From Escherichia coli (lineage in GTDB: Bacteria > Pseudomonadota > Gammaproteobacteria > Enterobacterales > Enterobacteriaceae): a DNA stretch of 64,000 bases. Numbering within the stretch: position 1 is the first letter of the stretch; each line of letters opens with the position of its first letter. The stretch lies in the NCBI RefSeq assembly GCF_013122565.1, contig NZ_CP053258.1; one strand, written 5' to 3'. Shown piece after piece: positions 11,800 through 48,239 of the stretch. The position numbers and the translations under genes are program-made. The notes below the pieces were generated by a model, which worked only from the letters and a program-made list of their open reading frames with translations, ran no database searches and was not told the DNA's origin.

Positions 11800-12087
11800 A
11801 TGAACGAAGTTGTAAATTCAGGCGTGATGAGCATTGCGTCTTTGGTTGTATCGGTGGTGGTTCTTCTTATCGGGCTCATCTTGTGGTTTTTTATCAATCG
11901 TGCCAGTTCACGGACTAACGAACAGATTGAACTGCTTGAGGCGTTGCTGGATCAGCAAAAACGTCAAAATGCACTGTTACGTCGTTTGTGCGAAGCAAAC
12001 GAACCTGAGAAAGCAGATAAAAAGGCCGTTGAGAGTCAAAAATCGGTTGAAGACGAAGATATTATTCGTCTGGTCGCCGAACGATAA
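11800..12087 (+). CDS. yebO: Small membrane protein YebO
   Basis: 95-aa ORF starting MNEVVNSGVMSIASLVVSVVVLLIGLILWFF. Confidence 0.85.
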   Translation: MNEVVNSGVMSIASLVVSVVVLLIGLILWFFINRASSRTNEQIELLEALLDQQKRQNALLRRLCEANEPEKADKKAVESQKSVEDEDIIRLVAER

Positions 12088-12754
12088 TCCTTCCTCAATC
12101 TTGAGTAACCCCGTCGTTGCAGGGTTACTCAATTCGTCCTGATTATACGCACTGTCATGGTGCAATTGCTTCAAATTAAAACTCTGGTCTGACTTCAAAT
12201 AATTATCATATTATTTATCTGCGTAACGGGATACCAGAAAAAATATTTACCCTATTAATTTATTAGGATGTTTACATCGGATTTTTGATTAAGCGTGGTA
12301 TTATTTATTAGCGAAACGTTTCTCTCTTGATTTTTTTACTCATTCATCAATTTTTCTTATTTTAAATTTACAATACCTTTGGGATTGACTTCTCTTTGGG
12401 GTAATTGATAGCCGTTAACTGCCTGTTTTATGAGAAAAAGTAATATAACTTTTTATTCATTGCATAGCAGAAAATGTGATATTGCACGCACTATGTAATA
12501 ACTTCTCCCACTGGCCTGGAACAACTGAACTTATTGAACTATGTTAGAAAATACGCCAGTTTAAGTATCTGTCTGAACTGGCAAGGTTAAGCACAATGAT
12601 ATATCGGCGCGTATTCCGTTGCATAAGTGTGCAAAAAAAGTGGAAGACGTATCGAGATTTGTGCGTCTGATCGAGACATGTTTAAAAATGGCTTGCCATA
12701 ATTAACGTTGTATGTGATAACAGATTTCGGGTTAAACGAGGTACAGTTCTGTTT

Positions 12755-12898
12755 ATGTGTGGCATTTTCAGTAAAGAAGTCCTGAGTAAACACGTTGACG
12801 TTGAATACCGCTTCTCTGCCGAGCCTTATATTGGTGCCTCATGCAGTAATGTGTCAGTTTTATCTATGTTATGCCTGCGGGCGAAGAAAACAATCTAA
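12755..12898 (+). CDS. yobF: Small protein YobF, 47 aa, co-transcribed with cspC
   Basis: ATG at 12755 translates to [47 protein letters not shown]; stop 12 nt before the cspC start. Below the ORF-track size cutoff. Confidence 0.85.
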
Positions 12899-12910
12899 GG
12901 AATTTTTCAA

Positions 12911-13120
12911 ATGGCAAAGATTAAAGGTCAGGTTAAGTGGTTCAACGAGTCTAAAGGTTTTGGCTTCATTACTCCGGCTGATGGCAGCAAAGACGTGTTC
13001 GTACACTTCTCTGCTATCCAGGGTAATGGCTTCAAAACTCTGGCTGAAGGTCAGAACGTTGAGTTCGAAATTCAGGACGGCCAGAAAGGTCCGGCAGCTG
13101 TTAACGTAACAGCTATCTGA
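12911..13120 (+). CDS. cspC: Cold-shock-family protein CspC
   Basis: 69-aa [40 protein letters not shown] with RNP1/RNP2 cold-shock motifs. Confidence 0.95.
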
Positions 13121-13166
13121 TCGAATCCACTGATCTGAAGTGTGAATACGCTTCAATCTCGCTATA

Positions 13167-13193
13167 AAGCCTCGTCGAATGCGAGGCTTTTTA
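13167..13193 (+). terminator. Rho-independent terminator downstream of cspC
   Basis: Stem gcctcg / cgaggc with 7-nt loop followed by a T5 run. Confidence 0.65.
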
Positions 13194-13285
13194 CTTTGCT
13201 TTATCTTCGCTCCAGTCGTTCGGATATTTGCCCGCCGCGTGATTCGCGTTACACTTGCGGCCTTTAGTATCCTGCCGGAGTTGTC

Positions 13286-14779: not shown

Positions 14780-14890
14780 GGTCTCGCCTGACTGAAAGTC
14801 TTCAGTCCGTACGTGCCACGTTTTGCAACGAGTATGTTGACACGTACATTTCCGGAATCTGGAAATTGGCTACTCCCCAAATGAGGGCGC
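14780..14890 (-). ncRNA. yybP-ykoY manganese riboswitch aptamer in the mntP 5' leader
   Basis: Minus-strand RNA contains GGGGAGUAGC (complement of 14869-14878) and GUCAACAUAC (complement of 14832-14841), both characteristic of the yybP-ykoY class, upstream of mntP. Confidence 0.6.
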
Positions 14891-45321: not shown

Positions 45322-46797
45322 TTAAATATGATGAATAATCACTTTGTTGCCCCCCTCGCTTTTCGCTTCGCGTAAGGCTTTATCTGCTTCCGTCATGACA
45401 AGCGAGATATTACGCGTGTCACCCGTTGAAAAAACCGTGCCAATACTGATGGTCATTTGTTCAGGAACATCATATCTGTTACTAAAGCCGGTCAGGAGTT
45501 CGACATTTTTACGCATACGTTCCGCAATGATTTTTGCCTGGGCACTATTGAGTTCGGTAAATAGCAAGCCAAACACCTCACCCTCCAGTCGCGCTAAAAT
45601 ATCATCGGGGCGGATGCTTTGCTGGATAATATCGACAATTGAAACCAGCACTTTATCACCCACACGATGTCCCCATTGGGCATTGATACGTTTGAACTGA
45701 TTAATATCAACCAGCATGACACAGAAGTCCTTAACAACAGGTCGCGACAATAATGACTCTACGCTGTTGAAAAAGTAGCGCCGATTATAAATATTGGTCA
45801 GCACATCATGAACTGCCAGTTTGCTGGAGAGTTGCAGTTCCTGAAAAATGTTATAAATCAGAAAAGACACAACAAACAGTTTACTGGAGACTTCAATCCC
45901 GCGACTGATATACCAGATGGTGTAATTATACTCATCCAGAGTCAGTAGAAGTAAGTTACAGCATAGCGATGCCAGACATAATAATGCTATTAACGGCCAT
46001 AGTTCGCTGGCTAATCGTGTACGCATGATAATAAAGAACAGTAAAAATGCCCACAAACAAACCAATATTTTTGTATAGTTGATTCCCCAGGTCGCAGTAT
46101 GGTTGTCCGGACAGTAATCGACGACATACAAAGAATAGTCAGCGTTATAACTGCTCAGATTGTGTGCCAGAAGGGGAAAAACTAAAAAAGGGATCAGCGC
46201 CAGCAACAGGATTGCCATTTTTTTCTTATTGTTGTCAAGGATGTTGTCTTTTCCATAACAAAAGAGCGCCAGCGAGGTTAAACAAATAAAACTGAGTTGG
46301 CGGAAAATATAGAAAATAGAAACATCATTCGACTTTGTCTGAATCAGTGTACTGTCGCTGATAGGTTTATGGATAACAACAATAGTTTCAACTAAATAGA
46401 TAAGGCCACTTAAAAACGCAAGACTTAAAATGAGTGTTGGTAGAATTTGTTTGTTAGTGAAATATTTCATTAACATGAAAAGAAAAATGATGGCGTTAAG
46501 GAAAAACAAAGCCACAACGACCATCAGATAATTCATCTGTGGGATGAGTTTTACATTCGTGTTTTCGTTATATAAGGTGGTGATGCAAAATAAAATTAAC
46601 GTCAGCAATAAACTGAAAATAAAAAAGCTTTGAGCTTTTAATTTTTGTGTACCCATAGAAACCATAAAAAGGAGAGCAATATGAGTGCTGGATTTTATTG
46701 ATGGCAGAGATATATAGTTTTGACCAGGATCAATTTTCGTTAACGATAAAAAATATTTAAAGAATAACCCCAGGGAAATACGTGTTGACCGAATCAT
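45322..46797 (-). CDS. cdgI: c-di-GMP-binding protein CdgI (YeaI), degenerate GGDEF domain
   Basis: 491-aa membrane protein with EGEVF in place of GGDEF (ARLEGEVFGLLF). Confidence 0.85.
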   Translation of the reverse strand: MIRSTRISLGLFFKYFLSLTKIDPGQNYISLPSIKSSTHIALLFMVSMGTQKLKAQSFFIFSLLLTLILFCITTLYNENTNVKLIPQMNYLMVVVALFFLNAIIFLFMLMKYFTNKQILPTLILSLAFLSGLIYLVETIVVIHKPISDSTLIQTKSNDVSIFYIFRQLSFICLTSLALFCYGKDNILDNNKKKMAILLLALIPFLVFPLLAHNLSSYNADYSLYVVDYCPDNHTATWGINYTKILVCLWAFLLFFIIMRTRLASELWPLIALLCLASLCCNLLLLTLDEYNYTIWYISRGIEVSSKLFVVSFLIYNIFQELQLSSKLAVHDVLTNIYNRRYFFNSVESLLSRPVVKDFCVMLVDINQFKRINAQWGHRVGDKVLVSIVDIIQQSIRPDDILARLEGEVFGLLFTELNSAQAKIIAERMRKNVELLTGFSNRYDVPEQMTISIGTVFSTGDTRNISLVMTEADKALREAKSEGGNKVIIHHI

Positions 46798-46943
46798 TTT
46801 TCCGAATGATTGTTTTCTGGAACTAAATTGTGTAAAGGTTATGCTGTCATATTTAAAACGATTGTAAGCTAATGTATGTAATAAATGAGATAATTTACAG
46901 TGAGCTAAAAATCAGCCAGGCGATAATGACCCGGCTGATAGTT

Positions 46944-48239
<1,296 letters not shown>

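Follow-up and report, generated by a model that had tools for sequence, protein, structure and literature searches.

The AT-rich spacer upstream of yobF-cspC in Escherichia coli: probably a composite control region with a short leader

Introduction

What purpose, if any, is served by the 667 bp of AT-rich DNA that separate yebO from yobF-cspC in Escherichia coli? CspC is a global RNA chaperone, and selection for its loss has been seen repeatedly, in colonies of ageing E. coli (PMC13162491) as well as in Salmonella growing on succinate (PMC10965054); this repeated selection makes the inputs to the cspC promoter a matter of practical interest. Several answers can be envisaged for so long a gap—a long regulatory leader on the yobF-cspC message, the debris of a lost gene, a hidden gene, or DNA that acts through the proteins binding it. 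The evidence assembled here suggests that the stretch is probably a non-coding composite control region acting mainly as DNA rather than as RNA, made up of a stem-loop, filler, H-NS-binding DNA with embedded islands of conservation, and a strong promoter with a short leader. The spacer is in this respect ordinary and largely described already, its length, promoters, H-NS site and short leader all having been published. What is added here is a base-level map, in which about 150 of the 667 bp are under selection across the family while the remaining AT-rich DNA is unconstrained, and one candidate input to yobF-cspC, an operator-like sequence of the RbsR type, which is the sole element that we would regard as worth a bench test.

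Limits, composition and coding content of the spacer

The stretch of DNA analysed here (64,000 nt of contig NZ_CP053258.1, assembly GCF_013122565.1; hereafter the window) carries, around the region of interest, the genes kdgR, yobH, mgrB, yebO, yobF, cspC, rlmA and mntP in this order. As the stop codon of yebO (TAA) occupies 12085-12087 and the ATG of yobF begins at 12755, the gap extends from 12088 to 12754, i.e., over 667 bp. Its GC fraction is 0.351 as against 0.498 for the whole 64 kb, and of all 667-bp segments of the latter only 0.8% are equally AT-rich. The coordinates and the GC content of 35.1% bear out the first-pass annotation of this DNA, which had described a 667-bp AT-rich non-coding spacer before yobF-cspC. 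The two antisense ORF hits that it had listed are likewise recovered: two minus-strand ORFs, at 11977-12198 and 12587-12793, are the only ones of 60 aa or more that reach into the gap, and all ORFs wholly inside it are of 28 aa or less. In K-12, RefSeq has no annotated feature between yobF and yebO. The features discerned in the spacer are collected in Table 1.

The spacers of Escherichia have 32-35% GC, and those of other genera 36-44%; the extreme AT-richness is thus specific to Escherichia, and a part of it may reflect drift rather than function.

A match to the spacer is present in 5,423 of 5,426 complete E. coli genomes, and in 24 genomes among the matches listed the sole annotated feature beneath it is an IS1 transposase in one strain; natural strains tolerate IS1 insertions here. 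An origin of the spacer from a repeat or mobile element was rejected, as it is single-copy in E. coli genomes and the repeats found within it are short two-copy matches only, with no tandem signal.

Table 1. Features of the yebO-yobF spacer in window coordinates; class A denotes the 45 loci with a short yebO-yobF interval
Feature	Position	Strand	Basis or remarks
Stem-loop	12101-12132	+	perfect 11-bp arms 12101-12111 / 12122-12132, 14 nt past the yebO stop
Unconstrained AT-rich DNA (~175 bp)	12133-12307	none	conservation 0.1-0.5 in 45 class-A loci
AT-rich core	12151-12500	none	29.4% GC; H-NS-binding zone, limits inferred from composition
LacI-family (RbsR-type) operator-like palindrome AGCGAAACGTTTCTCT	12310-12325	none	15/16 identity to the rbsD operator
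Degenerate Escherichia copy of a family-wide island, GTCATnAAAnTTTCATTATTTTGGTGCA	12343-12372	none	alignment
CRP site AAATGTGATATTGCACGCACT	12472-12492	none	in vitro Footprint-seq
Family-wide island CTGGAcGAA..TTGAGCTATGGTAAAAAAG	12516-12554	+	conservation 0.69-0.76 in class A; visible in 26 genera
TGCA-N6-TGCA box TTGCATAAGTGTGCAA	12619-12634	none	~130 bp before the ATG
Near-invariant core promoter block	12657-12727	+	at least 0.88 identity in 45 class-A loci
UP-like tract GTTTAAAAATGG	12680-12691	+	in the core promoter block
Promoter P(-48), overlapping P(-27)	GAGACA 12673-12678 / CATAAT 12697-12702	+	18-nt spacing, promoter scan; TSS 12707
Promoter P(-27)	TTGCCA 12693-12698 / GATAAC 12716-12721	+	17-nt spacing; TSS 12728, 7 nt downstream
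yobF-cspC leader RNA	12728-12754	+	27 nt in E. coli; 48 nt from 12707 in the Salmonella construct

Comparison across Enterobacteriaceae and the MBL-fold gene

A scan for YebO yielded 80 loci from Enterobacteriaceae, in 74 of which the yebO-yobF interval could be delimited; together with the window these make up 75 loci from more than 25 genera. They fall into two classes. Class A (n = 45) has intervals of 441-744 bp, mostly 588-744 bp (Escherichia 663-667, Salmonella about 650, Citrobacter 634-700 and Klebsiella 590 bp), and class B (n = 30; e.g., Lelliottia, Leclercia, Kosakonia, Buttiauxella and Cedecea) has intervals of 1455-1581 bp. The latter are longer on account of a gene for an MBL-fold hydrolase of 331-335 aa (PF12706), which lies about 17 nt behind yebO; between this gene and yobF, about 520 bp are kept, bearing the same islands as class A. 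On the basis of the 75 loci the spacer can be divided into four parts: the stem-loop, an unconstrained stretch of about 175 bp, an AT-rich part of about 350 bp in which the islands lie, and about 100 bp comprising the promoter and leader.

The same profile is mirrored within the genus, where 11 Escherichia sequences show 50 variable columns. Per 50 bp, the unconstrained parts have 7-8 of these columns and 12588-12787 has 0-1, with none falling in the palindrome or the CRP motif. The unconstrained parts are 12133-12307, where polymorphism among E. coli is dense, and 12378-12440, which is free to vary both between and within species.

These observations bring up an alternative, namely that the AT-rich stretch is mainly the debris of a lost MBL-fold gene, drifting towards AT and functionless beyond the proximal promoter. 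The PF12706 gene is found directly behind yebO in 30 of the 75 loci, at the very position of 12133-12307. Class-A loci from the E. cloacae complex show a weak tblastn match to its C-terminal codons (E = 0.015-0.15), which is consistent with loss by deletion; the lack of constraint in the two segments named above and the IS1 insertions of natural strains fit the same account. However, the gene-bearing loci keep their ~520 bp with the same islands as well, such that the scar of the gene can account for no more than about 175 bp of the spacer in Escherichia. The islands, moreover, are clearly constrained, the palindrome core being found in 69 of the 75 loci. At the protein level, tblastn at a word size of 2 detected no remnant of the gene in Escherichia, Salmonella or Citrobacter, the best match in the window having an E-value of about 10. 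We consider this alternative improbable as an account of the whole stretch, and a remnant of the MBL-fold gene in Escherichia was itself rejected, since consistent tblastn matches were confined to the E. cloacae-complex loci.

A short leader behind a near-invariant promoter

Three published data sets bear on the start of the yobF-cspC message in E. coli. 5'-RACE gave a yobF 5' UTR of 27 nt (PMC5230787), tagRNA-seq placed the yobF starts at 1907615-1907618 (PMC7075262), and the table of a sigmaS ChIP-seq study lists the same yobF TSS, 27 nt before the ATG (PMC4447067). By exact alignment of the window to K-12 these fall at 12728-12731, i.e., 24-27 nt before the ATG. In Salmonella, a yobF::sfgfp fusion said to carry the 5' UTR starts at GTTGTATGTGATAAC (PMC10965054 supplement), which corresponds to 12707 in the window and to a leader of 48 nt, in agreement with the promoter GAGACA-18-CATAAT. 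From the published starts and the Salmonella construct taken together, the yobF leader can thus be put at 27-48 nt. It contains an SD-like GAGG (12738-12741) and an sRNA pairing zone: OxyS represses yobF, probably through pairing near the SD, and the mRNA is also a target of CyaR (PMC10965054; PMC5861431).

The DNA that directs these starts is the best conserved of the spacer. Both P(-27) and P(-48) have sigma70-type hexamers at the right spacing with a TSS 5-9 nt downstream, and the former is the one listed for the constitutive promoter of yobF by Shimada et al. (TTGCCA-17-GATAAC; PMC3946193). From the core block through the leader (12657-12754) the sequence is nearly invariant, with GGCTTGCCAT found in 74 of the 75 loci and GTGATAACA in 72.

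Against this stands the possibility of a long regulatory leader of yobF-cspC that takes in the whole spacer or the 3' 200-400 nt of it and is transcribed from a distal promoter—e.g., TGGAAC-17-TATGTT with a TSS at about 12552, which would give a leader of about 203 nt. Such a promoter is not without indications: the family-wide promoter-like island at this place has a C of the sigmaS type at -13, several peaks of the RpoD holoenzyme occur in the yobF spacer (PMC3946193), a SELEX peak of the RpoS holoenzyme at yobF (PMC5493296) aligns with about 12601, upstream of the mapped promoter, and EcoCyc has two yobF promoters, yobFp1 and yobFp2 (PMC13162491). In Salmonella, Tn5 insertions that lie 172-181 nt past the SalCom TSS are listed as being "in the 5'-UTR" (PMC10965054 Table 1). 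Yet the three independent E. coli data sets agree on starts between -24 and -27, and a 5' UTR of 48 nt is what was cloned in the Salmonella study itself, whose Table 1 conflicts with this construct unless yobF is counted as part of the cspC leader. The DNA between the islands is also unconserved, and folding gives no sign of a structured RNA: against shuffled controls, z was +0.41 for the 48-nt leader region, -1.09 for the hypothetical 203-nt leader and +0.34 for the whole spacer. An E-value scan with Rfam found no family within the spacer of the window, nor within those of seven other genera. A long leader is hence rated as quite improbable, more so than an origin of the AT-rich DNA as gene debris, and a long structured leader was rejected on the published starts and the fold z-scores.

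It follows that one half of what the first-pass annotation had offered as an explanation does not hold. It had proposed a long structured 5' UTR, with TSS mapping and RNA structure prediction as the checks; the published mapping in E. coli yields 24-27 nt and the Salmonella construct 48 nt, which overturns the proposal as regards the length of the leader, and the z-scores and the Rfam scan speak equally against structure.

In the Salmonella table, the coordinate of the cspC insertion does not fit a 48-nt UTR.

Only one Rfam model, RF01766 (the cspA thermoregulator), matches nearby, at 12735-13195 with 139.6 bits, and it does likewise in seven other genera. The match is carried by the coding sequence of cspC, with the 5'-UTR part of the model laid over yobF at low posterior probability; a known RNA family in the spacer was rejected on this ground, as the match represents cspC coding-sequence homology from 12735 onward. 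A parallel with the long cold-shock leaders might nevertheless be struck, in that cspC is a paralogue of cspA and the model matches the cspC region. The difference is that the model starts 20 nt before the yobF ATG, with no match in the AT-rich spacer, and that the leader here is only 27-48 nt long.

The stem-loop behind yebO

At the other end of the spacer, right behind yebO, a hairpin had been placed by the first-pass annotation at 12103-12130. The hairpin itself is amply supported, though its limits are slightly wider (12101-12132): the 71-nt fragment 12080-12150 has a minimum free energy of -20.3 kcal/mol (z = -4.26), with none of 200 shuffles being as stable. Among class A, the loci examined (e.g., those of Escherichia, Salmonella, Citrobacter and Klebsiella) have a strong stem-loop at the same place, with unrelated sequence. 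As mgrB-yebO has been described as one transcript (PMC5861431), the stem-loop is probably the 3' end or the terminator hairpin of this message.

In being a stable GC-containing stem-loop right behind a stop codon, with its position kept across genera, it resembles the intrinsic terminators of small-gene operons, from which it differs in having no canonical U-run. The tail that follows, UUCGUCCU, is a weak U-tract: the stretch TTCGTCCT has T at four of eight positions, short of the five of eight taken as a U-run. A scan for consensus terminators did not call the yebO hairpin, although it did call that of cspC at 13166-13190. The yebO hairpin may accordingly serve as a stabiliser of the 3' end, or may depend on Rho or other factors.

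Protein binding and the islands of the AT-rich DNA

The other half of the first-pass proposal, a region bound by nucleoid proteins, has fared better, being supported in vitro by a genomic SELEX mark for H-NS at the yobF<yebO "670 bp spacer" (PMC3946193). As the SELEX data give no position at the level of bases, the limits of the H-NS zone (12151-12500) are drawn from composition. The composition would suit an H-NS silencing region, with 35.1% GC overall and 29.4% in the core as against 49.8% for the window. Holoenzymes and sigma factors have also been mapped to the region. Besides the RpoS peak considered above, an RpoN/NtrC SELEX peak at yobF (PMC8743547) aligns through K-12 with about 12717, and the sigmaS ChIP peak (PMC4447067) with 12585-12822.

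A closely comparable class is formed by the spacers that Shimada et al. (2014) call type B; one of these is the 847-bp spacer between mngB and cydA with its five cydA promoters, beside which the yobF spacer is cited by those authors as an example (PMC3946193). They share a co-directional arrangement, a length well above 500 bp, AT-richness, several holoenzyme peaks and the H-NS mark. They differ in that yobF is documented only with close proximal starts (-27 and -48), and its distal islands are without an assigned factor except for CRP.

Among the islands, the CRP site is the one with published binding in vitro. Footprint-seq in vitro found cAMP-CRP bound to a site assigned to yobF, agTGCGTgcaataTCACAttt, with its centre at 1907867 (PMC12871828), which aligns through K-12 with about 12479 in the window, and yobF is among the genomic SELEX targets of CRP (PMC3105977). 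Compared with TGTGA-N6-TCACA, the site has one good half (TGTGA) and one poor half. It is invariant in the 11 Escherichia sequences; Salmonella and most Citrobacter retain only a GTGAT half-site.

The remaining islands are recognised from their conservation. In the island at 12343-12372, TTCATTATT is present in 60 of the 75 loci; it is promoter-like in other genera (TTGnGn-16/17-CATTAT), and the hexamers are not kept in the window. That at 12516-12554 is a possible distal promoter, with TGGAAC at 12517-12522, a 17-nt spacing, TATGTT at 12540-12545 and a C at -13, as judged from its letters. The TGCA-N6-TGCA box has a fixed position: GCATAAnTGTGC occurs in 44 of the 75 loci, every time at -134 to -132 from the ATG, and in other genera a similar box, GCATAACTATGCAC, lies about 290-300 bp upstream.

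One further explanation is that the spacer conceals, on one strand or the other, a small protein gene or a small RNA that has escaped annotation. A promoter-like island is conserved outside Escherichia, small ORFs do occur (e.g., one of 22 aa, MRKSNITF..., at 12430-12498), and an in vitro run-off array with EsigmaS gave an antisense-strand signal for the yobF intergenic probe, as it also did for cspC (PMC3141248). But the DNA downstream of the promoter-like islands is unconserved; E. albertii has lost the ATG at 12430, around which the conservation of the spacer is at its lowest. In the antisense ORF of 68 aa, conservation is confined to the overlap with the promoter, and the length of this ORF ranges from 62 to 120 aa between genera. 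A terminator scan found no terminator-like site inside the spacer, and Rfam has no family there in any of eight genera. A hidden gene of either kind is thus the least credible of the alternatives and must be deemed extremely improbable. A hidden protein gene in particular was rejected, the ORFs within the spacer being unconserved and of at most 28 aa, and the longer antisense ORF being kept only over the promoter block.

A composite control region

In the reading that we prefer, that of a composite region acting mainly as DNA, the parts would work as follows. The first 45 bp would hold the stem-loop, which would end the mgrB-yebO message or stabilise it; termination by this hairpin is what its position and stability suggest. 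Next would come a filler of about 175 bp, free of constraint, in the place that a gene occupies in other genera. The ~520 bp between the stem-loop and the promoter would represent promoter-upstream DNA, AT-rich and bound by H-NS in vitro, in which islands stand among freely evolving spacers: a putative LacI-family (RbsR-type) operator, the CRP site, a promoter-like box and the TGCA-N6-TGCA box. Coating of the AT-rich tract by H-NS would damp the constitutive promoter and any spurious ones, and the islands would be sites for transcription factors that adjust this damping. The last ~100 bp would supply the near-invariant strong promoter, followed by the leader of 27-48 nt on which OxyS and CyaR act.

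Some observations count against this reading. At 100-440 bp from the mapped TSS, the islands are rather distant for repression or activation of the classical kind. The high-affinity nucleation motif of H-NS is TCGATAAATT. With up to two mismatches allowed, it has a single match in the spacer (12528-12537, minus strand, two mismatches) among 105 in the 64-kb window, and no enrichment in the spacer was seen at this threshold.

An RbsR-type palindrome as a candidate input

The conserved palindrome at 12310-12325 is the sole new detail of the region; it appears to be undescribed so far and is proposed as a candidate site on grounds of sequence. Its dyad centre lies between 12317 and 12318, 437 bp before the yobF ATG and about 410 bp upstream of the mapped TSS. 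The rbsD operator, AGCGAAACGTTTCGCT, was read directly before rbsD in K-12, and 12308-12327 is identical to it at 16 of 20 positions. No other match above 12/16 to this operator is present in the 64 kb, and a binomial estimate puts the number of 15/16 matches expected in a 4.6-Mb genome at about 0.05.

Its conservation is both wide and narrowly bounded. The core CGAAACGTTT is found in 69 of the 75 loci, belonging to both locus classes and usually placed 380-470 bp upstream of yobF. Across these 69 loci CGAAAC|GTTT is invariant, A(-8) and T(+8) have a conservation of 0.97 and 0.99, and the positions +5 to +7 vary; the flanks are unconserved, and within the 11 Escherichia sequences the palindrome does not vary at all. 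This symmetric pattern suggests a dimeric protein of the LacI family recognising one strong and one weak half-site. In other genera, the palindrome would lie about 50 bp upstream of the predicted promoter-like box.

The likeness to the rbsD operator, and thereby to the RbsR regulon (LacI-GalR family, PurR-RbsR subgroup), consists in a 16-bp palindrome with a central CG that is identical at 15 positions, and in the A(-8)/T(+8) symmetry that is expected for a dimer. The two differ in that the yobF palindrome, some 410 bp upstream of the TSS mapped for this gene, neither overlaps nor adjoins its promoter, and in its weaker right half-site (GTTTCTCT as against GTTTCGCT).

Other members of the family were also considered. 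The consensus sequences of PurR and Cra fit the palindrome at about 10/16 as compared with 13-15/16 for the rbsD operator, and these factors were on this basis set aside, if weakly. For KdgR, whose gene lies 1.3 kb away, the half-site spacing is wrong when held against its consensus.

In the literature library searched, no paper connects the promoter region of yobF/cspC with RbsR or PurR, and genomic SELEX reportedly yielded only five RbsR sites (PMC4797297).

AGCGAAACGTTTCTCT might be a working operator of RbsR or a close LacI-family paralogue, coupling ribose or nucleotide status to yobF-cspC by countering H-NS on the AT-rich tract or by governing an unmapped upstream promoter, a proposal that we hold to be possible but rather doubtful. 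If it were true, it would establish a direct link between rbsR and cspC, for which there is so far only a lead: mutants of both genes were obtained from one and the same Salmonella screen for succinate utilisation, in which they were not connected (PMC10965054).

Variation and repeated motifs in the yebO-yobF spacer

The AT-rich spacer that separates yebO from yobF (12088-12754) matches E. coli genomes at 96.4-97.5% identity, 97.5% being the maximum among the matches listed, and when set against all 10 E. coli sequences compared it displays 10 positions specific to the window, namely 8 substitutions and 2 single-base deletions. The window probably does not stem from a typical E. coli, and a Shigella or a divergent lineage may be its source. 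IS1 insertions inside the spacer are seen in two natural strains, E. coli SHP24 (L092) and FDAARGOS_1279 (genome match H2), and in a further matching genome (H39) the spacer is reduced to its first 67 bp. The IS1 of SHP24 lies at the equivalent of window ~12292-12300, flanked by a 9-bp duplication (AGCGTGGTA); the RbsR-like palindrome, i.e., the putative LacI-family operator, follows 10 nt downstream.

The left half of this palindrome has a degenerate second copy, visible as a direct repeat (TATTATTTATCTGCGTAACG / TATTATTTATTAGCGAAACG) that the alignment finds not to be conserved in E. albertii. In the rbsD regulatory region of K-12, the main operator is preceded at ~80 bp by a second CGAAACGTTTT core, which shares an identical 12-nt stretch with the Enterobacter-type form of the island upstream of yobF. 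In L055, L057, L064 and other loci outside Escherichia, the second island, another short conserved block of the spacer, lies ~400 bp upstream of yobF and includes a direct repeat with 11-bp phasing, CTGTCAT-N4-TTTTCAT. This repeat resembles a site for a winged-helix response regulator (Pho-box-like) and is degenerate in Escherichia.

Coordinates of the repeats, Rfam matches and inserted gene (window positions unless a locus is named)
Feature	Position	Strand	Basis or remark
Direct repeat TATTATTTATCTGCGTAACG / TATTATTTATTAGCGAAACG	12209-12228 and 12299-12318		85% identity, 90 bp apart
Second CGAAACGTTTT core	L082 240-262 (K-12 rbsD upstream)	-	sequence match
cspA thermoregulator model (RF01766)	12735-13195	+	Rfam scan over yobF-cspC
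yybP-ykoY Mn2+ riboswitch (RF00080)	14790-14886	-	Rfam scan; upstream of mntP
MBL-fold hydrolase gene	L009 3308-4303; L031 3310-4317; 28 further loci		PF12706

Transcription and translation start of yobF

The sole GAGG before yobF (12738-12741) ends 13 nt ahead of the ATG, leaving no well-placed Shine-Dalgarno in window 12738-12754, and a 5'-RACE study likewise scores the gene as 'no SD' (PMC5230787). Despite this lack, the stretch 12738-12754 is invariant in the alignment across 26 genera.

On the opposite strand, an in vitro EsigmaS run-off array gave a 2.4-fold preferential signal for an antisense probe of the yobF/yebO spacer and for 'c2230, antisense of cspC' (PMC3141248); these signals hint at a minus-strand antisense transcript over cspC-yobF and the spacer (window 12088-13120). 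For Salmonella 4/74, a published Table 1 lists a TSS at 1893683, '5'-UTR' Tn5 sites at 1893511 and 1893502, and a 'cspC' insertion at 1893137 (PMC10965054). Taking the 48 nt cloned in pNAW258 as the 5' UTR makes these coordinates mutually incompatible: either the authors took yobF as leader or one of the coordinates was mistyped.

Rfam models, a flanking gene and a second AT-rich stretch

Over yobF-cspC, the cspA thermoregulator model scores above threshold (123-141 bits) in all genera tested (the window and L003, L005, L008, L009, L023, L051 and L064). The match rests on the cspC coding sequence, the 5'-UTR portion of the model aligning over yobF with low posterior, and such a match is likely to misdirect automatic annotation. 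The Mn2+ riboswitch match upstream of mntP reaches 40.1 bits (E = 1.7e-8), under the 45-bit gathering threshold, and its alignment omits the long 3' part of the model.

In 30 of the 75 Enterobacteriaceae loci compared, a gene for an MBL-fold hydrolase of 331-335 aa (PF12706, E = 8e-42) begins ~17 nt past yebO. In E. cloacae-complex loci without it, its C-terminal codons still give weak matches (E = 0.015-0.15), a pattern consistent with a recent deletion of the gene.

The window has a second strongly AT-rich stretch, ~45971-47150, with GC as low as 0.32; this one is not intergenic, lying within two long ORFs of the minus strand (491 and 427 aa).
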